Source: Terriglobia bacterium
GTDB taxonomy: Bacteria; Acidobacteriota; Terriglobia; Acidiferrales; UBA7541
Assembly: GCA_963695545.1 (NCBI GenBank)
Contig: OY968796.1
Location: 96,001-160,000, forward strand
Direction: 5' to 3'
Length of the DNA: 64,000 bases
The notes under the pieces were generated by a model. It was not told where the DNA came from and made no database searches. It was given only the letters and a program-made list of their open reading frames with translations. Made by a program: the position numbers and the translations under genes. Positions 6,064 through 54,548 of this stretch are shown here, piece by piece; position 1 is the first letter of the stretch, and the number at the start of each line of letters is the position of its first letter.

Positions 6064-6903
6064 TTACGCCGAGGCGGAACGCTGCGCCTGAATAAAGGCG
6101 AGGAGTTCCGCGTTGATCTGGTCTTTCAAAGTGGAGCACATGCCGTGCGGCGCGCCGGGAATGATTTTCAGGACGGCGCCTTTGATAATTCTGGCCTGCA
6201 GGAGAGACGCATCGGCGTAGGGCACGATCTGATCGTCGTCTCCCTGAAGGATGAGCGTGGGCACGTCGAACTTCTTCAGGTCTTCGTTCTGATCGGTTTC
6301 CGAAAATGCCTTGACGCATTCGTAGACGGCATTGATACCGCACATCATTCCCGCAAGCCAGAACGAATCGCGCAAGCCTTGCGAGACTTTGGAGCCGGGC
6401 CGATTCGCGCCATAGAAGGGCGCGCTCAAGTCCTTCCAGAACTGAGAGCGGTCGGCCTGGATTGCGGAGCGGATTTGATTGAGCGCCTCGATGGGCGTGC
6501 CGCCCGGATTGGAGGGCGACTTGATCATGATGGGAGGAATGGCGCTGATCAACACGGCCTTGGCGACGCGTTTCGTGCCGTGGCGGGCGATGTAGCGAGC
6601 GACTTCACCGCCGCCGGTGGAATGGCCGACGTGAATGGCGTCCTTCAGATCGAGTTTTTGGACGAGCTCGGCGAGATCGTCGGCGTAGGTGTCCAGGTCG
6701 TTGCCGCCCCACGGCTGGCTTGATCGGCCGTGGCCGCGGCGATCGTGCGCGACGCAGCGGTATCCGCGGTTGGCCAGAAACATCATTTGATCCTCGAACG
6801 CGTCCGCGTTGAGCGGCCAGCCGTGACTGAAAACTACGGGTTGTCCTGTGCCCCAATCCTTATAGTAAATCTCGGTGCCGGCTTTGGTGGTGAATGTAGC
6901 CAT
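6064..6903 (-). CDS. Non-heme chloroperoxidase-type alpha/beta hydrolase
   Basis: [21 protein letters not shown] nucleophile, [21 protein letters not shown] upstream. Confidence 0.92.
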
Positions 6904-7044
6904 GTGATTCCTCCTGGCGCGAAGGGCGCCGGTTCACGCTGACGGATACCACGATTGGTGGATGGGCGCAATTACGCGGCTGTGAATATCAAATGATCGC
7001 CAGCGGCTAGGATTTTTCGGGGTCATACGCTGCTCCAATTGGGA

Positions 7045-7375
7045 CGGGGTATATACACCCCCGTATGTTTTGCGTAAGTATTGCAAACAAAGGGGATGCA
7101 GGGAAAGAGTGCGGATGAGTGTGAAAACAAAGGGATGTAATGTTCTTTGTTTTGAGCGAGTTGCGCACTCTTTTGCGAGAGATTGAAAACAAAGGGGCTG
7201 CAGAGCGGGTTTGATGCAGATGAGTGCAGGGTTTGGCGAGGCTGGATATGCCCGGCGGTGCGCGGCGGCCGGGAAAGAAGCGGCGTTTCGAGGAATTGTT
7301 GCGCGTTCATACCGACTTGTAGCACAGGTCTTTTAGATTCGTCAACAGTATTTTGTGAGTATAGTGTTCGAATAG
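7045..7375 (-). repeat. Dispersed intergenic promoter/palindrome element, copy 1
   Basis: Core 7049-7220 aligns with 53938-54115. TTGACG at 7345-7340, ATG at 7310, GTGTTCGAATAG at 7364-7375. Confidence 0.8.
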
Positions 7376-7517
7376 AGTTTTCGAAACCAGATGGAGGGCG
7401 CTCGCCGGCGGCATTCGAAAAGAGTGCGCCGCCCGCACGGGCTTGACAGGGGACGGGACGGCACAGCGCGCAGCTGTCACACCGCGCGTGACTCTGCGCC
7501 ACCAGCGTGATCGAAGA

Positions 7518-19279: not shown

Positions 19280-19356
19280 GCGCCCGTAGCTCAGGTGGAT
19301 AGAGCGTCTGCCTTCTAAGCAGAGGGTCGGGAGTTCGAATCTCCCCGGGCGCGCCA
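19280..19356 (+). tRNA. tRNA-Arg (anticodon TCT)
   Basis: Acceptor stem GCGCCCG/CGGGCGC, TAGCTCAG..GGATAGAGC, anticodon arm TCTGC-CTTCTAA-GCAGA, GTTCGAATC, encoded CCA. Confidence 0.97.
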
Positions 19357-23996: not shown

Positions 23997-26900
23997 ATGC
24001 GCCCAACGCGCTTGCGGATATCGCTTTCTCAATCGTGGGTCGTGCGAGTTCTTCCGACCCTTTCGAGATTTGTGGCGTTCGCCACGCGCGCCGGTTCGTG
24101 GGCGCTGCTGCTTCTGATTTTTTCCGCGAGCGCGGCGCGCGCGCAGAACATCACCGCGGGCGGCATCATCTCGACCGCGGCGGGAAGCGGCGGCGCCGGC
24201 TCAGCGGGAAGCGGAGGGCTCGCGACGGCCACTCCAGTTGGCGGGCCCGACGGGGTGGCATTGGATCGCGCGGGAAATATCTATCTACTGGATCGCACCA
24301 ACGATCAGGTCGACGTCGTCAACACCCAGGCGGCGGCGATCACGGTCACCGGAGTAACGATCCAGCCTGGGAACGTCGCAGTGATCGTGGGGAGCACAGG
24401 TTCGTGCGGGACCGCCGGAGCGATTGGAGACGGCGGGCCGGCAATCGACGGGCTGCTTTGCGGACCACTCGGCTTGGCTCTGGACGCTTCGGGAAACATC
24501 TATATCGCGGACAATCAAGACCTGCGCATTCGCATCGTCAACACGCAGGCGACCGCGATCACGGTCGCGGGCGTCACCATTCCGCCCAACGATATCGCAA
24601 CTGTCGTGGGCACCGGAGTCTCCGGTTCCGCGGGAGACGGCGGCGCGGCGACGAGCGCAACGTTAACCAATCCCAGCGGCGTGGCTCTGGATGCGGCGGG
24701 GAATATTTATATTGCCGACGAAGGCGCGGACGTCGTGCGCGTCGTAAACACGCAAGCGGGATCAATCACCATCGCCGGCGTAACGATCGCTCCGAACGAT
24801 ATCAAGACGATCGCCGGGACGGCCGATTCTCCTGCGTACACCGGAGATGGCGGCGCGGCGACCAGCGCCAAATTGAGCTCGCCGTACGCTGTGGCGCTCG
24901 ACGCAGCCGGAAATATTTATATCGATGACGATGGCAACGAAGTGGTACGCGTCGTAAATCCGCAAGCCAGCGCGAGCGTCACCGTCGCGGGCGTTTCGAT
25001 CGCGGCCGGCGATATCAAGACGATTGCAGGAAACGGAACCTCCGGTTACATGGGCAATGGCGGAGCCGCGACCTCCGCGGAATTGAATAATCCGCTGGGC
25101 GTTTTCGTCGAGGCCAATGGAAACATCCTCATCGCCGATGCGAACAACTCCGTAATCCGGTTGGTGACCACGACCGGAACGATATCCACGTTCGCGGGCG
25201 ACAACACGTTTGGCTTCACCGGAGACGGTGGATTCGCGACGAGCGCCGAGCTGTCCGGCGCAGACGCTACGGTTTCCGACGCCGCCGGAGATGTGTACAT
25301 CGCGGATTTTAATGATCACCGGATTCGCGAAGTGGTGAGCGGTACGGCGAAGTTTGGTTCTGTGGCTGTGGGACAAAGCGTCACGCTGCCGATCGGCCTG
25401 AACTTCACTGCCGGCGAAACCCTGGCGACTATCTCCGCGAGCGGAGATAACACCGTCTCGAGTGTCGGCACGTGCACACTGGGCGTCGCGTTTGTGTCCG
25501 GAAATTCCTGCATCCTGAGTGTGAAGTTCACGCCGACCGCTCCCGGACCGCGATGGTTCCCGGTAACCGTCACCGACTCCAGCGGGAACATCTATTCTTT
25601 TGCATTGCAAGGCACCGGCGTCGCGCCAGCCACGGCCTTCACGCCCGGAATCATCGCCACGATTGTGGGCACTGGGACGGCCGGGTTCACGGGCGATGGC
25701 GGCCCGGCGACCGCAGCGGAAATCGGAAAACTCTGGGAAGCGACGGTGGATAGCGCGGGCAATCTCTACCTCGTCGATCACGACAACCAGCGCATTCGCG
25801 TTGTGAACAGGCAATCGAGCGCGATTACCGTCTTTGGCGTGACGATTCCGGCGGGCGACATTCAAACGGTAGCCGGAAATGGGACCGCGGGCGCTTTAGG
25901 CGACGGCGGAGCGGCCACGAGCGCGGAGTTTTATTACCCAGAGGGAGTGGTGCTGGATGGCGCGGGCAATCTCTATATCGCCGATAGCATCAACAACAAA
26001 ATTCGCAAAGTCACTGCGGCAGGCATCATCTCGACCGTGGCCGGTGGCGGCTCGGCGTGCGGTGCGGCCACCGACGGTTTAGGAGACGGTTGTCCGGCAA
26101 CGCAGGCGACGATTAATTCGCCGAACGGCGTTGGCTTCGACGCATCCGGGAATCTCTACATCGTGGACACGTTCAACAACCGCATCCGGAAAGTAAGCCC
26201 GGCCGGGATCATCACCACGGTGGCGGGCGGCGGGTCGGTATGCGGCGGCGCGACGGACTCCGTTGGCGATGGTTGCGCGGCCACCAGCGCGACTTTGGAT
26301 CTGCCTGGCAGCGCATTAGTGGATGCAGCGGGCAATCTCTACATCGCCGACACCAGCAATAATCGCGTCCGCAAAGTGAATACGAACGGCGTCATTACGA
26401 CCGTGGCGGGCACTGGAACGGCGGGCTTTAGTGGAGATGGAGGCCTCGCGACCAGCGCGGAATTGGATGTTCCGTTTCGTATTTCCATCGACGCCGCAGG
26501 GGATCTTTACGTCGACGATCAAACCAATGAGCGAATCCGCATGGTGGCTACGAACGGGGATATTTCCACCGTGGCGGGTGACGGGATCGCCGGTTTCATG
26601 GGTGACTCCGGATCCGCAACCGCCTCCGAACTCAGCAGTCCAGACAGCGCGGCCGTGGACGGCGCGGGCAATCTTTACATCGCCGACGGCGCAAACTCCA
26701 GGATTCGGAAAGTCAGCGTCACCCTTGCGCCAACCGAGGCCTTCGGCACTCTGGAGGTTGGCCAAACCAGCGGTGCGATGGGCGTCGGTCTCTCCGACGT
26801 GGGCAACGCTGCGCTCAGTATCAGTTCGCTGACGTGGCCCACCGGCTTCGCCATGGCAACTGTCGGCGACGATTGCGCCGTCGCCACGCCCGTGACGCTC

Positions 26901-29900
26901 GGCGGGAAATGCGATCTGGGCACCGTGTTTTCGCCTTCAACTGCGGGCGCGTTCAGCGCTTCGCTGGGCGTGGCCAGCAATGCCTTCGATGCGCCATCGA
27001 CAATCGCTCTAACCGGAACGGCGAATCTGCCTGTAACGGCTTTGCCAGCGACGCTCACATTCTCGAATCAGCCCGTCGCCCAGTTGAGCGCGACGCAAGC
27101 GGTGACGCTGACCAATCCAACCGGCGCGGCGATCACTGGAATCGCCATCACTTTCAGCGGCACGAACGGAACCGAGTTCACCGAGACCGACAATTGCACC
27201 GCCACGCTCGCCGCAAATTCCAGTTGCACGATCAACGTGGGATTCACGCCTACGGCGGTCGGCTCCGGCTCGCACACCGGTGAAATGAGCATCGCCGATA
27301 GCGATCCAAGCACTCCGCAAGTGGTGATGCTCACCGGCACCGCCGTCAAAGGCACGCCGGTAATCACCTGGGCCACTCCCGCGGCGATCACCTACGGCAC
27401 CGCGCTCAGCAGCACGCAACTTGATGCCAGCGCGAGCGTGTCCGGAGTATTTGCCTACACGCCCGCTTCGGGCAGCACGCCCGCGGCGGGGAGCGATACG
27501 CTTAGCGTCGTTTTCACTCCTACCGACACCACCGATTACGCGGCAACCACCGCGACTGTGAATCTCACCGTGAATCAGGCGATTCCGACAGTCACCTGGA
27601 CCACGCCAGCCGCCATCACTTACGGCACCGCGCTCAGCGCCACGCAACTCGACGCGACGGCGAGCACCGCGGGAACTTTCGTGTACGCGCCCGCATCCGG
27701 CACCGTGCTAACGGCAGGATTCCAAACGCTGCACGTGACATTCACTCCGACCGACGCGGTCGATTACACGACAGCTACCGGCACCACAACTCTAACCGTG
27801 GACGCGGCGGCGCCCGTGATCACCTGGGCCACGCCAGCCGCGATCACCTACGGAACCGCGCTCAGCGGCGCGCAACTTGATGCGACCGCGAGCGTGCCGG
27901 GAACTTTTGTCTACACACCAGCCGCGGGCATAGTGCTTGGCGCGGGCTCGAAGGTTCTCGACGTGACGTTCTCGCCGACCGACGCGGTCGATTACACCTC
28001 GGCCTCCGCCGGCGTATTTCTCACGGTAAACAAGGCGACTCCCGTGATCACCTGGGCCACGCCAGCCGCGATCACCTACGGCACCGCGCTCAGCGTCACG
28101 CAGCTTGACGCCACTGCCAGCACAGCGGGCACCTTCGTGTATTCACCCGCATCCGGCACCGTGCTAACCGGCGGAGCCCAAACGCTAAATGTGACGTTCA
28201 CTCCGACCGACGGCACCGATTACACCACCGCGACCGGCAGCACAATTCTGACCGTAAACAAGGCGGCGCCCGTGATCACCTGGGCCGGGCCTGCGGCGAT
28301 CACATACGGAACAGCGCTCAGCGGCACGCAACTTGATGCGACCGCGAGTGTAGGAGGGACGTTTGTCTACACGCCGGCAGCCGGCGCTGTGCTTACGGCG
28401 GGCGCGCAAGTGCTCGACGTAACGTTCTCCCCGACCGATACGGTCGATTACACCTCGGCCTCCGCCGGCGTACCTCTGACGGTAAACAAGGCAGTGCCCG
28501 TGGTTACCTGGGCCACGCCCGCCGCGATCACCTACGGCACCGCGCTCAGCGCTACGCAGCTTGATGCCACCGCGAGTGTGCCCGGCACGTTTGTCTATGC
28601 GCCGGCTGCGGGAGCCGTTCCGTTGGCGGGCAGCGATACGCTCGGCGTGACATTCACACCGACCGACTCCGTGGACTACACAACAGTCACTGCCAATGTG
28701 ACCTTGGTCGTACATCAGGCGACGCCCGTAATTACCTGGGCCACGCCCGCCGCGATCACCTACGGCACCGCGCTCAGCGCCACGCAGCTTGACGCGACGA
28801 CAACTGTGGCGGGTACTTTTGCCTACTCACCGGCCGCGGCGACCGTCCCCGGTGCAGGCAGTCAAACGCTGCACGTGACCTTCACTCCGACTGACGCGGT
28901 CGATTACACAACGGCCACCGCCACCACAACTCTCACCGTAAATCAGGCCACGCCCGTGATCACCTGGGCCACGCCCGCCGCGATCACGTATCTGACAGCT
29001 CTGAGCGGCACGCAACTCGATGCGACGACGACCACCGCGGGGACATTCGTCTACACGCCGGCGTCCGGCACCGTGCTGACGGCCGGAGCACAGACGCTGC
29101 ATGTGACCTTCACTCCAACCGATACGACTGATTTCACGACAGCGGCCGGCACCACGACCCTGACCGTGAATCAAGCCACGCCCGTGATTACCTGGACTAC
29201 GCCCGCGGCGATTACTTACCCGACTGCGCTGAGCGGTACGCAACTTGACGCCACAGCCAGCGTCGGTGGGACGTTCGTCTACTCGCCGGTATCAGGCTCT
29301 ACGCCGACCGCGGGGAACGATTTCCTCACCGTCACGTTCACCCCGACCGACGCCGTCGATTACACCACCGCCACCGCCAACGTGACGCTCGTCGTGCATC
29401 AAGCGACGCCCGTGATCACCTGGGGCACTCCCGCCGCCATCACCTACCCAACGCCGCTCAGCGCCACGCAGCTTGATGCAACAGCGAGCGTGCCAGGTAC
29501 CTTCGTCTATGCTCCAGCCGCGGCGAGTGTGCCACTCGCGGGCAGCGACACGCTCAATGTAGCTTTCACTCCCACCGACGCGGTCGATTACACCACGGCC
29601 ACGGCCAACGTAACGCTAACGGTCAACAAGGGGACGCCCGTAATCACCTGGGCCACGCCTGCGGCGATTACTTACGGAACAGCGCTCAGCGCCACGCAAC
29701 TTGACGCCACAACAACTGTGCCCGGAACTTTCGCCTATACGCCCGCTGCGGCAACCGTACTCGCCGCCGGCAGCCAAACGCTGCACGTGACGTTTACTCC
29801 CACTGACGCCGTCGACTACAACACAGCCAGCGGCACCACAACTCTCGTCGTGAATCAGGCCACGCCCGTGATCACCTGGGCCGCGCCCGCCGCGATCGCC

Positions 29901-32900
29901 TACGGCACCGCGCTAAGCGCCACCCAACTTGACGCGACGACCACTACCGCCGGGTCGTTTGCCTACACACCCGCGTCCGGAACTGTGCTCACGGCAGGAG
30001 CTCAAACGCTGCATGTGACGTTCACTCCAACGGACACGACCGATTTCACGACAGCGACGGCCACAACCACTCTGACCGTGAATCAGGCCGCGCCCGTGAT
30101 CACCTGGGCCACGCCCGCTGCGATCACCTATCCAACTCCGCTGAGCGGTACGCAACTTGATGCCACCGCGAGTGTGGGAGGAACGTTTGTTTACTCACCG
30201 CTATCCGGAACTGTTCCGACCGCCGGCAACGATTTCCTTAGCGTCACATTCACGCCGACCGACGCCGTCGATTACAGCACGGCCACCGCAAACGTAACCC
30301 TGGTCGTGCATCAGGCGACTTCGGTAATCACCTGGGGCACGCCCGCCGCGATCACTTACGGAACAGCGCTCAGCGGCACGCAACTTGACGCCACGGCGAG
30401 TGTCGCCGGTACCTTCGTCTATTCGCCTCTTGCAGGATCCGTGCCCGCAGCGGGCAGCGACACGCTCAGCGTCACGTTCACGCCGACCGACGCCGTCGAT
30501 AACACCACGGCCACCGCAACCGTAACTTTGGTCGTGAACAAGGCAGCGCCGGTGATCACCTGGGCCACGCCCGCCGCGATCACCTACGGCACTGCTCTCA
30601 GCGTTACGCAACTTGACGCCACCGCGAATGTGCCAGGAACTTTTGTCTACACGCCCGCCGCCGGCAGTGTGCCCGCAGCCGGCACGCAAGTGCTTGACGT
30701 GACGTTCTCGCCGACCGACGCAGTCGATTACACCTCAGCCTCCGCCGGCGTGAACCTGACGGTCAATAAGGCCACGCCCGTGATCACTTGGGCCACGCCT
30801 GCGGCGATCGCCTACCTGACGCCTCTAAGCGCGACGCAACTTGACGCGACAGCCAGCACCGCCGGGACTTTCGTTTACGCGCCCGCATCCGGAACCGTGC
30901 TCACCGCCGGCGCACAAACGCTCGATGTGACTTTTACTCCAACCGACGGGGCCGACTACACAACGGCCACAGCCAACGTAACTCTGACGGTGAACCAGGC
31001 GACGCCCGTGATCACCTGGGCCACGCCCGCGGCGATCACCTATCCGACCGCGTTGAGCGGCACACAACTTGACGCCACAGCCAGTGTGGCAGGGACGTTC
31101 GTCTACTCACCGCTATCCGGCACTGTTCCGACCGCGGGCAACGATTTCCTCAGCGTCACGTTCACCCCGACCGACGCCGTCGATTACGCAACGGCCACCG
31201 CCAACGTAACTCTGGTCGTGCATCAAGAACTTCCTGTGGTCACCTGGGCGACGCCTGCGGCGATCACCTACCTCACGCCTCTAAGCGCCACGCAACTTGA
31301 CGCCACAGCGAGCACGGCCGGCACGTTCGCATACACACCTTCGGCCGGTACCGTGCTCGGAGTCGGCAGCCAGACGCTGAACGTCACGTTCACGCCGACC
31401 GACGCAGTCGACTTCTCGACCGCCACCGGCACCACCACCCTCACAGTGAACAAGGCGACTCCAACAATTACCTGGGCCACGCCTGCCGCCATCTCTTACA
31501 ACACAGCTCTCAGCGCCACGCAACTCGACGCCACAGCGAGTACCGCCGGCACCTTCGTGTACGCGCCGCCGCTCGGCACTGTGCTCGGAGTCGGCAGCCA
31601 AACGCTGAACGTCACGTTCACGCCGACCGACGCCGTCGACTTCACCACGGCCACCGGCAGCACAACTCTGACGGTGAACAAAGCCACGCCCGTGATCACC
31701 TGGGCCACGCCAGCGGCGATCACCTACAACACCGCTCTCAGCGCCACGCAACTTGACGCCACGGCGAATACCGCCGGCACCTTTGTTTACGCGCCGCTCG
31801 CCGGTGTCGTGCTCGGAGCCGGGAGCCAAACACTCAGCGTGACGTTCACGCCAACTGACGCGACTGACTTCGCGACAGCCACCGGCACGACGACTCTGTT
31901 GGTAAACAAAGCCACGCCCGTGATCACCTGGGCCGCGCCCGCAGCCATCGCCTACGGCACAGCTCTAAGCGCCACGCAACTTGACGCGACCGCCAGCGTC
32001 GCCGGCACATTTGTGTACGCTCCGCTCGCCGGAGTAACGCTCGGCGGCGGCGCTCAAGTGCTCGCCACCACATTCACGCCCACCGACGCGGTTGACTACA
32101 CGACCGCGACCGCGACGGTAACTTTGACCGTGAACCCAGCCGTGACGACCACGACGCTCGTCTCGTCGACCAATCCATCCAACGCGAACGCGAACGTCAC
32201 GTTCATGGCCACCGTCACCTACGCCGCGGGCTCGCCCACCGGCAGCGTCACGTTCAGTAGCGGCGCCACACTGCTCGCGACGGTCACGCTCTCGAGCGGC
32301 TCCGCAACATTGATCACCGCCGCTTTGCCGCTCGGCGCCGACAACATTACGGCCACCTTTATCGCGGGCACGAACTTCGCGACAAGTACCTCGCCAATCT
32401 TGGTGCAAACCGTGATCGCCCCGAACTTCACGATCGCTCCTGCGTCGGTTGCGCCGCTCCCGCCAGTCGCCGCGGGCCAGGCGATCATCATTCCGATCAC
32501 ACTTGGCCCGGCAACTGTAGCCGGAGGAACGGTGCTCTTCTCCGCGACTGGTCTGCCGCCGAACAGCAGCATCGTCTTCGCTCCGCCCAGCCTCTCGGTC
32601 AGCACTGTGGCGCAGAACACAGTCATCACGCTGCAGACCACGCCGCAATTCCCCTACACCTCGCGCCACCCTGGGCCGTTTGGCGGCTGGCCTAGCCCGC
32701 GGCAACTCGAGTTCGCCGCGATCGGTCTTCTGCTTGCAGCTTTCGGCCTCTTCTGGGCCACCACGCGCAAACGCCGCGGCTGGGTTCTGGCGTTTGGAGG
32801 GCTCGCCCTTGCCGCAATTCTGGGAGGCTGCGCGACCACCGGCAGCAGCGGCAGCGGCACAGGAAACTTCTCGAGCTTCGGCACGACTCCGGGAACCTAC

Positions 32901-32969
32901 CCCGTTGTCGTCACCGGAAGCGACGGAAGCTACCAGCATTCCACGACGGTCAACGTCGTCGTGAATTAG
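23997..32969 (+). CDS. Giant surface protein (2990 aa): NHL beta-propellers, Ig-like domains, 21 tandem 76-aa repeats, C-terminal TM hairpin with lipobox
   Basis: Long signal peptide ending ARA; GDGG.AT.A.L..P.GVA.D.AGN.YIAD NHL repeats; repeat block; TTTTL.SSTNPS Ig-like domain; LGGC near the C-terminus. Confidence 0.92.
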   Translation: MRPTRLRISLSQSWVVRVLPTLSRFVAFATRAGSWALLLLIFSASAARAQNITAGGIISTAAGSGGAGSAGSGGLATATPVGGPDGVALDRAGNIYLLDRTNDQVDVVNTQAAAITVTGVTIQPGNVAVIVGSTGSCGTAGAIGDGGPAIDGLLCGPLGLALDASGNIYIADNQDLRIRIVNTQATAITVAGVTIPPNDIATVVGTGVSGSAGDGGAATSATLTNPSGVALDAAGNIYIADEGADVVRVVNTQAGSITIAGVTIAPNDIKTIAGTADSPAYTGDGGAATSAKLSSPYAVALDAAGNIYIDDDGNEVVRVVNPQASASVTVAGVSIAAGDIKTIAGNGTSGYMGNGGAATSAELNNPLGVFVEANGNILIADANNSVIRLVTTTGTISTFAGDNTFGFTGDGGFATSAELSGADATVSDAAGDVYIADFNDHRIREVVSGTAKFGSVAVGQSVTLPIGLNFTAGETLATISASGDNTVSSVGTCTLGVAFVSGNSCILSVKFTPTAPGPRWFPVTVTDSSGNIYSFALQGTGVAPATAFTPGIIATIVGTGTAGFTGDGGPATAAEIGKLWEATVDSAGNLYLVDHDNQRIRVVNRQSSAITVFGVTIPAGDIQTVAGNGTAGALGDGGAATSAEFYYPEGVVLDGAGNLYIADSINNKIRKVTAAGIISTVAGGGSACGAATDGLGDGCPATQATINSPNGVGFDASGNLYIVDTFNNRIRKVSPAGIITTVAGGGSVCGGATDSVGDGCAATSATLDLPGSALVDAAGNLYIADTSNNRVRKVNTNGVITTVAGTGTAGFSGDGGLATSAELDVPFRISIDAAGDLYVDDQTNERIRMVATNGDISTVAGDGIAGFMGDSGSATASELSSPDSAAVDGAGNLYIADGANSRIRKVSVTLAPTEAFGTLEVGQTSGAMGVGLSDVGNAALSISSLTWPTGFAMATVGDDCAVATPVTLGGKCDLGTVFSPSTAGAFSASLGVASNAFDAPSTIALTGTANLPVTALPATLTFSNQPVAQLSATQAVTLTNPTGAAITGIAITFSGTNGTEFTETDNCTATLAANSSCTINVGFTPTAVGSGSHTGEMSIADSDPSTPQVVMLTGTAVKGTPVITWATPAAITYGTALSSTQLDASASVSGVFAYTPASGSTPAAGSDTLSVVFTPTDTTDYAATTATVNLTVNQAIPTVTWTTPAAITYGTALSATQLDATASTAGTFVYAPASGTVLTAGFQTLHVTFTPTDAVDYTTATGTTTLTVDAAAPVITWATPAAITYGTALSGAQLDATASVPGTFVYTPAAGIVLGAGSKVLDVTFSPTDAVDYTSASAGVFLTVNKATPVITWATPAAITYGTALSVTQLDATASTAGTFVYSPASGTVLTGGAQTLNVTFTPTDGTDYTTATGSTILTVNKAAPVITWAGPAAITYGTALSGTQLDATASVGGTFVYTPAAGAVLTAGAQVLDVTFSPTDTVDYTSASAGVPLTVNKAVPVVTWATPAAITYGTALSATQLDATASVPGTFVYAPAAGAVPLAGSDTLGVTFTPTDSVDYTTVTANVTLVVHQATPVITWATPAAITYGTALSATQLDATTTVAGTFAYSPAAATVPGAGSQTLHVTFTPTDAVDYTTATATTTLTVNQATPVITWATPAAITYLTALSGTQLDATTTTAGTFVYTPASGTVLTAGAQTLHVTFTPTDTTDFTTAAGTTTLTVNQATPVITWTTPAAITYPTALSGTQLDATASVGGTFVYSPVSGSTPTAGNDFLTVTFTPTDAVDYTTATANVTLVVHQATPVITWGTPAAITYPTPLSATQLDATASVPGTFVYAPAAASVPLAGSDTLNVAFTPTDAVDYTTATANVTLTVNKGTPVITWATPAAITYGTALSATQLDATTTVPGTFAYTPAAATVLAAGSQTLHVTFTPTDAVDYNTASGTTTLVVNQATPVITWAAPAAIAYGTALSATQLDATTTTAGSFAYTPASGTVLTAGAQTLHVTFTPTDTTDFTTATATTTLTVNQAAPVITWATPAAITYPTPLSGTQLDATASVGGTFVYSPLSGTVPTAGNDFLSVTFTPTDAVDYSTATANVTLVVHQATSVITWGTPAAITYGTALSGTQLDATASVAGTFVYSPLAGSVPAAGSDTLSVTFTPTDAVDNTTATATVTLVVNKAAPVITWATPAAITYGTALSVTQLDATANVPGTFVYTPAAGSVPAAGTQVLDVTFSPTDAVDYTSASAGVNLTVNKATPVITWATPAAIAYLTPLSATQLDATASTAGTFVYAPASGTVLTAGAQTLDVTFTPTDGADYTTATANVTLTVNQATPVITWATPAAITYPTALSGTQLDATASVAGTFVYSPLSGTVPTAGNDFLSVTFTPTDAVDYATATANVTLVVHQELPVVTWATPAAITYLTPLSATQLDATASTAGTFAYTPSAGTVLGVGSQTLNVTFTPTDAVDFSTATGTTTLTVNKATPTITWATPAAISYNTALSATQLDATASTAGTFVYAPPLGTVLGVGSQTLNVTFTPTDAVDFTTATGSTTLTVNKATPVITWATPAAITYNTALSATQLDATANTAGTFVYAPLAGVVLGAGSQTLSVTFTPTDATDFATATGTTTLLVNKATPVITWAAPAAIAYGTALSATQLDATASVAGTFVYAPLAGVTLGGGAQVLATTFTPTDAVDYTTATATVTLTVNPAVTTTTLVSSTNPSNANANVTFMATVTYAAGSPTGSVTFSSGATLLATVTLSSGSATLITAALPLGADNITATFIAGTNFATSTSPILVQTVIAPNFTIAPASVAPLPPVAAGQAIIIPITLGPATVAGGTVLFSATGLPPNSSIVFAPPSLSVSTVAQNTVITLQTTPQFPYTSRHPGPFGGWPSPRQLEFAAIGLLLAAFGLFWATTRKRRGWVLAFGGLALAAILGGCATTGSSGSGTGNFSSFGTTPGTYPVVVTGSDGSYQHSTTVNVVVN
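27351..32138 (+). repeat. 21 x 228-bp intragenic tandem repeat (ATPVITWATPAAITYGTALS...TLTVN)
   Basis: Counted 21 units; 21 x 228 = 4788 bp, which matches the span exactly. Confidence 0.95.
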
Positions 32970-40706: not shown

Positions 40707-40828
40707 CGCAGAGCAACCACCGCAACTCCCGGCAAGCCCGGCGGCGGCGCAGCTCGGCCGACGCCCCAAGTCCTCACGACGGGCCACCAATTCGAACGCA
40801 CCCCAGGAAGAGGAAATCCTGTGGATTC

Positions 40829-41089
40829 CTATTCGAATAGCTATATAATTATATTGACGCATACGCTATCGACATGCTATGGTTCGGTATGAATCGCGAA
40901 CGCAAACCATCGCTAAAAAGCCCCGAGAATCGCCATTTTCAGCACCTTTTCACCCGCAACACTTCTAGAATCAACACTTCTGAAAAACGCCATTTTAAAC
41001 CTTTTGGAATCACCACTTCTGGCGCAAAGGACTTAAAGTCGATTAGAATCAGCACTTCCAAAAAAGCACCCGGGGGGGAGGGGGTACCC
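40829..41089 (+). repeat. Dispersed intergenic promoter/palindrome element, copy 2 (variant with 39-bp repeats)
   Basis: CTATTCGAATAG 40829-40840, TTGACG 40854-59, ATG 40889, GAATCAnCACTTC at 40968/41007/41046, A-run/G-run end. Confidence 0.75.
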
Positions 41090-41264
41090 AGGCCTCCACG
41101 CATCGTCTTTTTCGATCCTTTCGCGGAACGTCTCGCCCCGCGCGACCGTCGGCATCGGCCCGCCCTCAACTATGGGCAAACGTTTACTCACATCTTCGTG
41201 CTAGAATCGCCCCGTTCGCGCCCCGTTCGCGCAGACGCCCCTACTTCCGAGGAGGAAGCCCGCC

Positions 41265-43397
41265 ATGCCAAAAGACATCACTCGCCGTCAATTCGTCGCA
41301 ACCGCGCTTTCCAGCGCCGCGATTTCATCCTTGGCTCTCGCCAAAGGAACTTCCGCGGATGCCGCTAATGCCGGCTCTGCTGCCGCCGCGTCACGGCCGC
41401 GCCAGGATGCCGCCGCTCCCGGCACAGACCAATATTCCTCCTGGCACGATCAGGGCGTTCTGAATCTCGCCCACTCGCCCTACGCCAAGCTGCATAGCGT
41501 CCCCGTCCGCGCTGTCACCATCGAAACTGGTTTCTGGGCCGCGCGCCGCGACGCCACCTTCTCGCAAAGCATTCCCACCATGCACGATCTCCTCGAATCC
41601 CATGGCCGCATGGATAATTTCCGCCGCCTGGTCGGCAAAAGCGACGCGCCGCAAATCGGGCCGGTCTATTCCGATTCCGACGTCTACAAATGGACCGAAG
41701 CAGTGGCCTTCACTCTTCAGTCCGGAGATCGCCCCGAGCTGCACAAAACCGCCGCGGACATCATCGACCTGATTGTCGCGGTGCAAAAACCGAACGGTTA
41801 CATCAACACGTATTTCGTCGGCGACCGCGCCGCTCTGAGCATGACTCCCGATACACAGCAGTCCGGCCACGAGCTCTATTGCCTCGGACACATGTTGCAA
41901 GGTGCCATCGCTTACTACCGCGCCACAGGCGACCGCAAGTGGCTCGACGCCGGAACACGAATGGTGGATGACTTCCTGATGCCCAGTTACGGCCCCGCGC
42001 CGAAGTTGCCCATCATCGCCGGCCACCCCGAAATCGAAATGTCGCTCATCGAGCTCTATCGCATCACCGGCGACAAACGGCAACTCGATCTCGCCGGTTA
42101 CATCCTCAACGGCGACGACCGCATCAAGTTCCCACGCCAGGCCAACATTTATTTGTTCTGCGGCACGCCCTTCATCGAACGCACTCAAATCGAAGGTCAC
42201 GCCGTGCGCGCCATGTACGCGTGCTCGGGCGCCGCCGACTACTATCTAGAAACCGGCGACCCCGCTTATTGGAAGACGCTGAATGTTCTGTGGGAAAGCA
42301 TGGCGGGTTCAAAAATGTACGTCACCGGCGGCCTCGGCGCGCGCGCGCAGGGAGAATCCTTTGGCGCCGCCTACGACCTGCCGAATGCCAGCGCCTACGC
42401 CGAAACCTGCGCCGCGATCGGCAACATGATGTGGAATTGGCGTCTGCTCGCCGCCACCGGCGACGCAAAATTCACCGACGTCCTCGAACGCGCGCTCTAC
42501 AACGGCGTCAATTCCGGAATGTCGCTCAGCGGCACGCTCTATTGCTACACCAATCCGCTGGCCTTCGATCCTTCCGCCGGCATCACCATTCGCAACCCCT
42601 GGTACAACACGGATTGCTGTCCGCCGAATTTCGAGCGCACGATGGCTTCCCTTCCCGGCTATTTCTACAGCACCGCGAGCGACGGCCTCTACGTTCATCT
42701 CTACGATAATTCCTCGCTCGATTGGCATCTCGAAGACGGCACGCCTCTCAAGGTCACGCAAAAAACAAATATGCCGTGGGATGGAGACGTCGAAATCACC
42801 GTGGCGCCCGCCCAGCCAACTGACTTCACGTTTTATCTGCGCATTCCCGGCTGGGCCGGCGACACCACACGCGTCGCCGTCAACGGCAAGCTTGTCTCGG
42901 GAGCAATGCCCGGCACGTATCTCCCGATCCATCGCCACTGGTCTTCAGGCGATGTAATTCAAGTGCGTTTCCCCATGACGCCACAGCCGCTTTCAGCCAA
43001 TCCCCACGTTGCCGACGACACCGGCCGCGTCGCCATCCAGCGCGGTCCCTTGGTCTATTGCCTCGAGCAGCTCGATCAGCCCGCCGAGGTGGATCTCACC
43101 GACAATTCACTCGCGGTCCGCATGAGGCCCGGCGCCGAATTCACTAGCGAAGTCAGAGAAGATTTCCTGGGCGGGATTGTCGTTCTGCATCGAGACGGCG
43201 TAGTCGCGGAATCGCACTCGCCGCAAGGCTCGCCAAATTCCAAAGCCGCACCTGCGCCACTCTACGGTCCATATCAAGATCAGGAAGCCAACGCGCGGTA
43301 TAGCCACACCGTACAGCTAACGTTCATTCCCTACTACGTGTGGGCCAACCGCGAGCCCAGCCAAATGCAGGTCTGGACTCCGGTCTCAAAGGTATAA
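41265..43397 (+). CDS. GH127 beta-L-arabinofuranosidase-like, Tat-exported
   Basis: TRRQFV twin-arginine signal; DSDVYKW, HELYC, GHPEIE, GHAVRAMY, YAETCAA, CCPPN. Confidence 0.92.
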   Translation: MPKDITRRQFVATALSSAAISSLALAKGTSADAANAGSAAAASRPRQDAAAPGTDQYSSWHDQGVLNLAHSPYAKLHSVPVRAVTIETGFWAARRDATFSQSIPTMHDLLESHGRMDNFRRLVGKSDAPQIGPVYSDSDVYKWTEAVAFTLQSGDRPELHKTAADIIDLIVAVQKPNGYINTYFVGDRAALSMTPDTQQSGHELYCLGHMLQGAIAYYRATGDRKWLDAGTRMVDDFLMPSYGPAPKLPIIAGHPEIEMSLIELYRITGDKRQLDLAGYILNGDDRIKFPRQANIYLFCGTPFIERTQIEGHAVRAMYACSGAADYYLETGDPAYWKTLNVLWESMAGSKMYVTGGLGARAQGESFGAAYDLPNASAYAETCAAIGNMMWNWRLLAATGDAKFTDVLERALYNGVNSGMSLSGTLYCYTNPLAFDPSAGITIRNPWYNTDCCPPNFERTMASLPGYFYSTASDGLYVHLYDNSSLDWHLEDGTPLKVTQKTNMPWDGDVEITVAPAQPTDFTFYLRIPGWAGDTTRVAVNGKLVSGAMPGTYLPIHRHWSSGDVIQVRFPMTPQPLSANPHVADDTGRVAIQRGPLVYCLEQLDQPAEVDLTDNSLAVRMRPGAEFTSEVREDFLGGIVVLHRDGVVAESHSPQGSPNSKAAPAPLYGPYQDQEANARYSHTVQLTFIPYYVWANREPSQMQVWTPVSKV

Positions 43398-52868: not shown

Positions 52869-53834
52869 TCATATGACCTCTTCCACTCGCGGGGACGGGG
52901 CGGCCAGGCGATCGACTTCGGCGAGTTCTTCGGCAGAGAGATGCCAATCGGCGGCGCGGACATTTTGCTCGACTTGCTCGGGCTTGGTGGCGCCGGCGAT
53001 GACGCTTGAGACGGGCTGCTGCGCGGCGAGCCACGCGATGGCCAAATCGAGAAGATTGTGGCCGCGCGGCGCGCAGAATTTTTCGAGACGCTCGACGACT
53101 TCCCAATTCGCGTCGGTGATGTAGCGATCGGCGAGGTGCTTGGCGGTGTTCAGGCGCGCGCCCGCGGGCATGGGCTGGCCGCGCTTGTACTTGCCGGAGA
53201 GGAAGCCGCCGGCCAGCGGGAAATATGGGAGCAGGCCGAGGCCGTACGCGCGCATGGCGGGAATCAATTCGCGCTCGGGCTCGCGGACGATCAGACTGTA
53301 TTCATCCTGGCAGGAAATGAAGGCGTGCGTGCCGATGGTGCGCGCGGTCCACTGGGCTTCGACGACTTGCCATGCCTGCAAATTGGAGCAACCGATGTAG
53401 CGGACCTTGCCCTGCTGGATCAGGTCTTCGAGAGCGCGCAGAGTTTCTTCGATCGGAGTTTTTGGGTCCGGGCGATGGAGCTGATAGAGATCGATCCAAT
53501 CGGTGCCGAGGCGGCGCAGGCTGGCTTCGGCGGCGGACATGACGTAGGCGCGCGCGGCGCCGCGCATGGTTTTGGCGTCGTCCATGGCCATGCCGAACTT
53601 GGTGGCGAGAACGATGTCTTTTCGGCGCGCTCCGAGGCTTTGGCCGAGCATGATTTCGGAGCCGCCCTTGTTGCCGTAAATGTCGGCGGTATCGAAAAGC
53701 GTGATGCCGAGATCGAGCGCTTTCGCGACCACGCGGCGCGTGGTCTCGAGATCGGTGCGGCTGCCGAAATTATTGCAGCCCAGACCGACGAGCGAAACTT
53801 CTAGCGGCGAGTTGCCGAGAGTGCGGTGCTTCAT
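52869..53834 (-). CDS. Aldo/keto reductase
   Basis: GLGCNNFG, FDTADIYG, LATKFG, IDLYQLH, GKVRYIGCSN, YFPLAGG. Confidence 0.94.
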   Translation of the reverse strand: MKHRTLGNSPLEVSLVGLGCNNFGSRTDLETTRRVVAKALDLGITLFDTADIYGNKGGSEIMLGQSLGARRKDIVLATKFGMAMDDAKTMRGAARAYVMSAAEASLRRLGTDWIDLYQLHRPDPKTPIEETLRALEDLIQQGKVRYIGCSNLQAWQVVEAQWTARTIGTHAFISCQDEYSLIVREPERELIPAMRAYGLGLLPYFPLAGGFLSGKYKRGQPMPAGARLNTAKHLADRYITDANWEVVERLEKFCAPRGHNLLDLAIAWLAAQQPVSSVIAGATKPEQVEQNVRAADWHLSAEELAEVDRLAAPSPRVEEVI

Positions 53835-53932
53835 GGCGAGTTCTCCCGAGGGCTGACGGAGTATCGCGCTTTTGATGCGCGGCGGGCTCGCGGCGGCGCT
53901 GCAGTCGGGTCGAAAGAGGACGAGAAAACTTG

Positions 53933-54260
53933 GGGCCTATATACACCCCCGGTATGTTTTTGCGAAAGTATTGAAAATACATGGGTTGCGGCAAAAGAGT
54001 GCGGATGAGTGTGAAAATACAGGGACTTGAAATCGAGTCGATTCAATGTGTTGCGCACTCTTTTGCAATGAATTGAAAACAAATGGGTTGCAGAGGCGAT
54101 TTGTTGCATAGAAATGCAAAGTGCGACGGGGCTGGAGCGGAGTGGAAGGCGGGCGCTGGACGGAAGCGACGATTCGAAAAGTTTTCGCGAGTACATGCCT
54201 ACGTATACCACGATAATTCCCACACGTCAACAATAATTTATAAGTATACTATTCGAATAG
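53933..54260 (-). repeat. Dispersed intergenic promoter/palindrome element, copy 3
   Basis: Homologous to copy 1; CTATTCGAATAG 54249-54260, TTGACG 54230-25, ATG 54196. Confidence 0.8.
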
Positions 54261-54300
54261 ATTCCGCGGCGCCGTTTTGCGCCATTCGAAAAGATTGTGT

Positions 54301-54548
54301 CGCCCCTACGGGGCTTGCACGGGCTGGGCTTGTGTACCCAGGGCTTCCGCCCTGGGCTAAAATGTATCGCCCCTACGGGGCTGAATCACAGTGCCGACCG
54401 CGATCGCACGGCGTGGCGCGCGGTTTTAGCAGCACGGCCACTCTTGGCGGTGCGGGGTCTGGATTTTTAATTCCGAAAAACCAAAGGCACACGGGCAAGA
54501 GTGCCTGTGCTACCGAAACCAAGATGGAGGCCTGAAGGCCTGCGCTAC
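54301..54548. repeat. Cluster of three REP-like palindrome types
   Basis: CGCCCCTACGGGGCT x2 (54301, 54368) around CCCAGGGCTTCCGCCCTGGG; inverted pair 54427-53 / 54487-513; AGGCCTGAAGGCCTGCGCTAC 54528-48. Confidence 0.7.

Follow-up and report, generated by a model that had tools for sequence, protein, structure and literature searches.

Phage satellites redirect or block the terminase of their helper phage, as SaPI does through its TerS, PICIs through Rpp or Ppi, and PLE likewise. The cos region of phage lambda combines R repeats, an IHF site, and a GC-rich nick site adjoining the TerS gene, and REP/REPIN-RAYT systems and MITEs are dispersed, intergenic, nonautonomous repeats. In the Salmonella chromosome, P22 pac-like sites are conserved and have been suggested to be under selection as starts for directional packaging (available text of PMC11260489). 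Described gene transfer agents (GTAs), as portrayed in the accessible parts of two sources, appear to need no packaging initiation site and to have no dispersed adaptor genes (PMC11841831, PMC6854486). The accessible sections of these and a third paper further describe TerS C termini that bind TerL and known GTA TerS proteins without a DNA-binding domain (PMC9611059, PMC6854486, PMC11841831). Acidobacteria are abundant in soil, and their gene exchange is little known.

Here we describe a family of cassettes dispersed through an acidobacterial genome, some of which encode a small zinc-finger protein with a TerS-like tail. The closest named relatives of its zinc-finger and TerS-like proteins belong to Candidatus Acidiferrales. 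An earlier note on three copies had proposed a dispersed, co-regulated transcription unit, and this proposal is supported by a total of 112 loci and by gain and loss of copies at orthologous sites. The element is real and apparently undescribed; we found no description of it in the openly accessible papers searched.

Anatomy of the cassette family

In a full copy, a TTCGAA box and a sigma70 promoter precede a leaderless start, which is followed by IHF-like repeats and a G-run end. Three copies lie in the window, by which we mean the whole 64-kb stretch of DNA that was analyzed: copy 1 at 7045 to 7375 (minus strand), copy 2 at 40829 to 41089 (plus strand), and copy 3 at 53933 to 54260 (minus strand). 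In copy 1, an outer TTCGAA (7414 to 7419) and an additional one (7380 to 7385) lie ahead of the main TTCGAA operator-like palindrome (7364 to 7375, 10 of 12 positions), which is followed by a sigma70-type promoter (7316 to 7345; -35 at 7340 to 7345, extended -10 at 7316 to 7324) predicted to be active from its consensus match. The leaderless open frame (7023 to 7310, 95 codons) spans the repeats and the G-run and stops 119 nt short of the codirectional gene at 6064 to 6903. The type A repeat array (7104 to 7188) has inverted 10-bp arms at 7164 to 7173 and 7104 to 7113 and IHF-like sites at 7176 to 7188 and 7151 to 7163, and the G-run with its short palindromic end motif (7045 to 7062; G-run 7056 to 7062) is a candidate cut or packaging-start site.

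The operator region of copy 2 (40791 to 40840) contains an outer TTCGAA (40791 to 40796), a TGTGGA (40820 to 40825) that we take to be DnaA-box-like, and a perfect palindrome (40829 to 40840). Its sigma70-type promoter (40854 to 40883; -35 at 40854 to 40859, extended -10 at 40875 to 40883) leads into a leaderless frame of 159 codons (40889 to 41368) that overlaps the start of the gene at 41265 to 43397 by 104 nt. Three 13-bp direct repeats with a 39-bp period make up its type B array (40968 to 41058), and the G-run end with the conserved type B tail (41072 to 41116; G-run 41072 to 41084) closes with a T-run about 45 nt on. Copy 3 has an operator region at 54249 to 54290 (outer TTCGAA 54285 to 54290, perfect palindrome 54249 to 54260), an inner TTCGAA at 54173 to 54178, a sigma70-type promoter (54202 to 54230; -35 at 54225 to 54230, extended -10 at 54202 to 54210), and a leaderless frame of 121 codons (53831 to 54196) whose stop overlaps the start of the gene at 52869 to 53834 in an ATGA coupling. 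Its type A array (53964 to 54078) has arms at 54054 to 54063 and 53994 to 54003 and IHF-like sites at 54066 to 54078, 54041 to 54053, 54020 to 54032, and 53964 to 53976, and the array is followed by a G-run/TATA end motif (53933 to 53950; G-run 53944 to 53950). REP-like hairpins (54301 to 54382, including Rfam Acido-Lenti-1 at 54337 to 54382) lie directly 5' of copy 3 and are also present at some copies of its subfamily.

The earlier note had read the palindromes, the outer TTCGAA boxes, the G-runs, and a TTGACG with a TGn extended -10 after it and an ATG 5 nt farther on in all three copies, and each was confirmed; the AT-rich spacers after the palindrome measure 18, 13, and 18 nt in copies 1, 2, and 3, respectively. 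It had overlooked the TTCGAA at 7380 to 7385 and at 54173 to 54178, as well as the ATG-opened frames of 95, 159, and 121 codons that run past the G-run. The only Rfam matches in the window are tRNA-Arg and Acido-Lenti-1, and no evident transposase is present in the window gene list, which derives from our own gene calls. The tRNA-Arg(TCT) gene (19280 to 19356) is surrounded by short, low-scoring genes, and a 2,990-codon gene with a signal-peptide-like start (23997 to 32969) probably encodes a large repetitive surface protein. Contigs from four DNA runs of one study, which may derive from the source sample, span copies 2 and 3 with few differences and contain no clean empty-site joint; no RNA run was listed as holding the element in our search of sequencing runs.

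The source genome (G000) is a single contig of 4.16 Mb, for which genes were called with our own codon model. A scan for the promoter pattern gave 79 matches and none in a backwards control, which is far beyond chance. Scanning for TTCGAA followed by TTGAC gave 95 matches, 88 of them with a whole promoter and a start codon 4 to 6 nt past the -10 element (5 nt in 82). Profile searches with promoter and body models, after removal of one weak locus and merging of two pairs split by an IS, yielded 112 loci, 56 per strand: 82 type A and 18 type B loci with a promoter, and 12 partial loci. The 12-bp palindrome is perfect in just 9 of the 88 full copies; the conserved core is TTCGAA(TA), with TTCGAATA in 74 and a second TTCGAA nearby in 72. 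Similarly, the TTGACG of the window copies holds for those three, but the usual -35 of the family is TTGACA (69/88). DnaA-box-like hexamers adjoin the operator (TCCACA in 19/88, TGTGGA in 14/88). The word TTCGAA is threefold underrepresented in the genome (564 observed versus 1,861 expected). Type A copies are diverged, with a mean identity of 63%. No recent identical copy was found among the cassettes, the best pair reaching 91%. The promoter pattern recurs in 5/5 congeners and 13/36 family genomes, a tally that takes in the unpublished G013 and G026, with backwards controls near zero.

LexA had been suggested as one possible regulator. TTCGAA is absent from the 260 to 300 nt upstream of lexA or recA, so neither a LexA box nor membership of the SOS regulon accounts for the operator. 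In this genome, lexA (2212436) is preceded by a direct repeat, ATTC-N7-ATTC, and recA (2228521) by a degenerate version of it; this repeat is likely the LexA box of the lineage, and it presumably corresponds to the Acidobacterium LexA box type. Two insertion sequences, IS1595-like by our own reading, occupy the same position in type B repeats (245223 to 247760 and 343585 to 346842; also at locus L206) with a short duplication. Since these are two different elements at one position, the cassette appears to be a target of this IS group.

Open frames and repeats

The frame set by the start codon is open to the G-run in 79 of the 80 copies with a located end; stops across these copies number 1 in the used frame and 174 and 192 in the alternatives. 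The eight copies without a located end, excluded from this count, include genome-wide copies 0, whose frame stops at codon 55 within the repeats, and 25, which has no body; copy 51 was assigned a false early end, and its frame stops at codon 67. The exceptions to the open frame are copies 0, 25, 51, and 82. Similar promoters without a cassette were followed by an open frame across 250 nt in two of nine cases. The rule also holds in other genomes (26/27 loci in G003, 22/26 in G004, and 16/19 in G001, from 30 of 52, 30 of 36, and 21 of 21 loci fetched, respectively, with four lacking a start pattern). Among 80 zinc-finger loci of other genomes, 31 gave no match to the promoter and 6 offered no usable start; the frame is open in 42 of the 43 with a recognizable promoter, with an ATGA overlap at 16 loci and an in-frame fusion at 10. 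The leaderless pattern was not matched at any of 18 additional loci and is therefore not universal.

The open frames do not encode a conserved product. Among type A copies, two different frames cover the core (25 and 31 copies) and all three occur across the right arm, and no peptide is thus conserved; the type B motif is read in a single frame in 12/12 copies, and its other frames contain stops. The micro-protein family that had been considered, with a conserved frame and amino acid sequence, does not fit the two-frame core, and frame lengths range from 35 to 1,287 codons and include fusions with unrelated genes. Of 55 codirectional neighbors, 9 are ATGA-coupled to the frame, 11 are fused to it, and 11 begin within 25 nt of its end; of the remaining frames, 7 enter the gene and 17 stop short, compared with 33 and 31 stopping short in the other two frames. 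Where the neighbor is convergent (24 copies), the used frame exceeds both others in 17, with a median length of 1,057 nt versus 114 and 106 nt (p 2e-4). Ribosome cover would extend at least 300 nt past the G-run in 57/79 copies, compared with 27 and 30 in the other frames, and the transcript is C-rich and G-poor (7,271 C versus 3,834 G). Selection acts on translation and not on a peptide product. Whatever the mechanism, about 80 frames are kept open without a conserved product, long antisense frames included.

Repeats had been described as common to the three window copies; every copy does carry repeats, but copies 1 and 3 have type A arrays and copy 2 a type B array. In type A, the inverted 10-bp arms are spaced 49 to 50 nt apart in 67/72 copies. 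IHF-like matches, scored against a relaxed consensus, number 190 in type A versus 36.5 in shuffles and 17 in type B versus 5.9, and distant homologues in other families have perfect IHF consensus matches upstream in 3/8 loci. Three IHF/HU family genes are present in the source genome. Changes in the type A arms of 72 copies comprise 39 single-side breaks, 13 G-U pairs, and 1 compensatory change. Type A RNA folds better than shuffles (z of -3.1 for copy 1, median of -2.1 over 30 copies), as is expected since any inverted repeat would fold, and type B RNA does not (z of +1.1). The structured noncoding RNA (ncRNA) considered in the earlier note is therefore not supported, for lack of covariation, of a type B fold, and of an Rfam family on the copies. 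From their sequences, the repeats behave as DNA sites predicted to bend DNA. In genome G018 (L199 to L223), at least two repeat-plus-G-run modules of different types are stacked within one open frame, and cassettes there have an AGTACT/GGTACC palindrome beside TTCGAA.

A zinc-finger gene with a TerS-like tail

Not visible from the window was the element's own zinc-finger gene and its tie to a terminase cluster. Four of the 112 copies carry a gene of 139 to 170 amino acids (aa) immediately past the G-run and 108 do not; a complete unit is the leader plus this one gene, with unrelated DNA directly beyond. At one orthologous site, the gene is present in the source genome and absent from G003. The encoded protein comprises a CCCH knuckle (C-x9-C-x10/11-C-x2-H in 226/266 homologues), a helical hairpin, and a tail; in the predicted model, the N terminus has no helices, and the order of metal knuckle, hairpin (69 to 114), and tail is that of TerS domains. 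Relatives form 2,362 clusters at 50% clustering. Within the family, the gene occurs in 39/100 genomes, and weakly in two other families, and it was not found in any of the 9 to 10 genomes searched in each of five well-sampled genera. All 13 genomes with at least three end motifs have the gene, and copy number varies widely among genomes.

Against Pfam and PHROG, the 4 zinc-finger proteins and 84 homologues gave no PHROG match and only scattered weak Pfam matches (zinc-finger and other families, each matched by one or two of the proteins). A fold search returned no viral match at an E value of ≤0.001 and a best PDB Z score of 6.6, a missing match excluding nothing here, and ESM structures gave DUF5681 as a weak neighbor (TM 0.54). 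Neither the element nor the gene had a match in viral and phage collections.

The tail motif, a regular expression picked after the tails had been seen, occurs exactly four times in the six frames of the source genome: in three zinc-finger proteins and in a 92-aa protein of a phage-like cluster. It is found in 149/266 zinc-finger homologues versus 1.0 expected after shuffling, and at 80 independent TerL loci from a viral database it terminates 22/359 open reading frames within 1.2 kb upstream of TerL versus 0/3,136 elsewhere. One tail (L278) agrees with the zinc-finger consensus at nearly every residue. These 80 viral loci contain neither the element nor the zinc-finger gene. By its sequence, the tail is that of the TerS-position gene in a domesticated phage-like particle cluster. 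At the profile level, the zinc-finger protein resembles the cluster TerS only within this 20-column tail (probability 53%), the N terminus differs from that of a canonical TerS, and the zinc-finger genes lie far from TerL. The cassettes account for spurious-looking "hypothetical proteins" and for an unannotated zinc-finger family of 2,362 clusters.

A phage-like cluster in the same genomes

The source genome contains a 35-kb phage-like cluster (3384434 to 3419758; L005 to L007) with matches to TerL, capsid, and transglycosylase and with portal-like, spike-like, and replication-initiator-like genes (the last phrog_1408, E value 3e-4). Here the portal gene is in two parts and the cluster harbors an IS3-like element. 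Homologues of the 92-aa protein are encoded directly upstream of TerL in G008 and G015, and in ESM space the protein lies near viral clusters (0.95) and DUF5681 (0.92); Pfam and PHROG gave nothing meaningful for the TerS-position proteins. In phage STGO-35-1, whose genome has been reoriented to start at TerL, DUF5681 is encoded by gene 88, close to the end, as given in the available text of PMC8954984, and so would adjoin TerL. The HK97/lambda-type TerL family PF03354 was not found in the source genome. In many family genomes (for example, G010, G036, G027, and G125), the TerL match is in two pieces within one long open reading frame, which implies inserted sequence around position 303 of the profile.

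Downstream of the cluster, G008, G016, G017, and G025 have one host gene in common; upstream flank genes are common to G004, G008, G015, and G016, and the flanks differ in G001 and G002. No integrase was found among the 26 cluster proteins scanned, nor an HxLRH motif. With host flanks common to several genera and TerL in 74/100 family genomes, the cluster is domesticated. Phage-derived head, tail, and packaging genes are fixed at one host locus, as in GTAs, and the cluster is a candidate Acidiferrales GTA in its own right. PMC5900883, in the text available, treats acidobacterial terminase clusters as prophages; supplements to published papers may list these clusters.

Among the 100 family genomes, 26 have both the zinc-finger gene and TerL, 13 the zinc-finger gene only, 48 TerL only, and 13 neither; this tally takes in three unpublished genomes, kinship makes some genomes nonindependent, and divergent forms may escape the gene profile. 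Eleven of the 13 zinc-finger genomes without TerL are also without the capsid gene, including genomes of 4 and 10 contigs and G018, which has at least 13 copies of the zinc-finger gene. A Terminase_6N match is present in only 2 of the 13.

Packaging starts as a tentative explanation

The explanation we consider best for the anatomy, the open-frame selection, the DNA-level repeats, the spacing, the polarity, the link of gene to cassette, and the identity of the TerS tail is that the cassette is a self-spreading packaging start with its own terminase adaptor, a reading of genes and sites that we hold tentatively and rate somewhat below an even chance. Since the small gene of the cassette ends in the docking tail of a phage packaging protein, the sites may load host DNA, and they may be where that DNA enters virus-like particles. 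One regulator acting at TTCGAA would turn on all copies together. Ribosomes on the C-rich leader would exclude Rho, letting polymerase pass the site and hundreds of bases beyond; the zinc-finger protein would bind the bent repeat array, and its tail would recruit TerL. TerL would cut near the G-run, and host DNA would be packaged into particles of the resident cluster or of an incoming relative, by which the cassette and neighboring genes would move between cells through transduction and recombination. Most copies would have lost the zinc-finger gene and remained as cis-acting sites. That hosts without a cluster are served by an outside helper is an added assumption.

Cassettes in the source genome are spaced 36.7 kb apart on average, and the median of 34.8 kb is close to the 35 kb of the cluster itself, which we counted in favor of packaging. 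The coefficient of variation (CV) of the spacing is 0.57 versus 0.98 to 1.00 for random intergenic placement, and 0/10,000 permutations were as even. Pairs per successive 10 kb number 7, 14, 26, and 36 versus 29.9 expected; the low counts at short range indicate exclusion below about 20 kb and not periodicity, which speaks against the packaging reading, as do the mixed orientations. Also against it are the absence of a positive association between gene and TerL, the 11/39 zinc-finger-positive genomes without cluster terminase and capsid, a TerS similarity that is confined to the tail, the lack of a fold match, and the absence of the element from the phage collections searched. The leaderless frame does not hold everywhere, the cluster in the source genome has a split portal and an IS3 element, the flanks of the G001 cluster differ, and the operator common to the cassettes was not found in the cluster promoter region. 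Nor does the reading offer an account of how new sites are first seeded. The largest cassette-free gap measures 140 kb (2218442 to 2359089).

A fuller version, in which more than 100 dedicated packaging origins of a domesticated particle tile Acidiferrales chromosomes, sequence specificity passes from the cluster TerS to the dispersed zinc-finger adaptor, and translation-coupled read-through arms the origins, is possible but doubtful. If it were true, selection would keep the passage of ribosomes and not the product, and the cassettes would form a site-directed gene transfer system shaping the positions of core and accessory genes in the genome.

Placement, turnover, and alternative explanations

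The DNA upstream of the cassettes is lower in GC content and codon score than the DNA downstream at 87/112 loci (p ~1e-9), an asymmetry seen at codirectional (61/75) and convergent (24/32) neighbors and absent from control gaps. For 64 cassette loci of three congeners, from which 13 short-flank loci had been excluded, the counterpart in the source genome was downstream only in 25 and upstream only in 5. Cassettes thus face core genes and have accessory DNA behind them, and the largest cassette-free gap suggests that they are missing from large accessory regions. Independently of mechanism, this is a repeat family that spaces itself out and marks core/accessory junctions.

An unlikely alternative is that the cassette is a nonautonomous element moved by an HUH tyrosine transposase (RAYT/REP-like or rolling circle) or another recombinase. 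The IHF array and G-run would be the fixed end of the element, whose outward promoter and open frame would limit damage to the downstream host gene, and the zinc-finger cargo would be a terminase decoy acting through its tail against phages or GTAs and not as an adaptor. All six Y1 (IS200/RAYT-like) transposase matches in the source genome (1198935, 1387492, 1424860, 1474552, 1475986, and 1479004) lie 0.13 to 4.6 kb upstream of a cassette, at four cassettes, which favors this reading, as do the 75 to 145 nt of REP-like upstream DNA common within subfamilies, a downstream end that is fairly fixed 45 to 75 nt past the G-run, and upstream DNA that is genome specific in the congener comparison. 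Turnover also fits: orthologous sites are filled at nine and empty at three loci in G003 and filled at two and empty at four in G004, two of the empty sites being clean and one retaining an operator remnant, and one orthologous site holds different cassette types in two species. The exclusion below 20 kb resembles target immunity, a property of Mu and Tn7, and the element persists in genomes without the cluster.

Against transposition, REP motifs precede only 20/88 copies and lie outside the conserved unit, and a decoy would have no need of 108 gene-less DNA sites. Gene-less copies keep promoter, repeats, and end at orthologous sites although the surrounding spacer DNA has diverged, and the long antisense frames at convergent copies protect no host gene. 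No recent identical copy was found. Neither target duplications nor terminal inverted repeats were seen in the portions of the empty-site alignments covered, at orthologous junctions, or between the closest pairs, which argues against the mobile element of the earlier note as a classical MITE or nonautonomous DDE transposon; since the spacers have diverged, an old target duplication could have been lost. Direct repeats around the upstream islets and dif-like or att-like sites were not found.

It is quite improbable, in our estimate, that the cassettes are host-domesticated chromosome landmarks, that is, sites of inducible long transcription or origin-like sites placed roughly 35 kb apart. They could serve extra replication (resembling Bartonella run-off replication and perhaps using the initiator-like gene of the cluster), mark supercoil or domain boundaries, or support transcription-coupled repair. 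The even spacing, the selected ribosome cover past the G-run, the DnaA-box-like hexamers beside the operator, the orientation toward core genes, the initiator-like cluster gene, and a cumulative GC skew that is weak and irregular in the source genome are all in keeping with this idea. It leaves the TerS tail unexplained, however, and copy numbers that vary widely, sites that turn over between species, and a gene found in none of five well-sampled genera would be odd for a housekeeping device. A structured ncRNA family or leaderless micro-proteins under one regulator would suit the strong, uniform promoters with their fixed start distance, the type A fold, and the single frame of the type B motif, but this is very improbable given the near absence of compensatory changes, the unfolded type B RNA, the shifting type A frames, the widely varying and fused open frames, and the lack of an Rfam match.

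Comparison with known systems

Like lambda cos, the cassette combines an IHF-like repeat array, an end that is palindromic and GC rich, and a TerS-like gene next to it; in lambda, the nick site and the TerS gene lie on either side of the repeats, whereas the cassette has its array beyond the G-run as seen from the gene, and cassettes belong to the host chromosome and not to a phage. Cassettes are dispersed and intergenic like REP/REPIN-RAYT repeats, with Y1 transposases and REPs clustering directly upstream, but unlike those repeats and MITEs they carry promoters, IHF-type arrays, and open frames under selection and are far more diverged. As in phage satellites, a small element-encoded protein would be directed at the packaging motor of a helper. 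The unit, a leader plus one gene of under 1 kb, is nevertheless no PICI or other satellite: it has no integrase, replication module, or att sites, and it is present in more than 100 copies per genome, most of them gene-less.

The cluster resembles GTAs such as RcGTA and Bartonella BaGTA in its host-fixed phage-like head, tail, and lysis genes, its conserved flanks, the lack of a detected integrase, and a short TerS-position protein without a recognizable DNA-binding domain. It differs in the proposed involvement of about 110 dedicated cassettes and a separate TerS-tailed DNA-binding protein. If the cassettes are packaging starts, this system would initiate gene transfer at programmed sites across the whole genome. 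The P22 pac-like sites are nine 17-nt motifs read by the TerS of the phage itself, according to the available text of PMC11260489, whereas here there are 112 transcribed and translated cassettes of 300 to 600 bp, some of which encode a TerS-tailed protein; as packaging starts, they would be a far larger case of the host-selected pac-like sites idea set out in that text. Of the systems considered here, the cassette would work most like such host pac-like sites (PMC11260489, available text) joined to a satellite-type terminase redirector.
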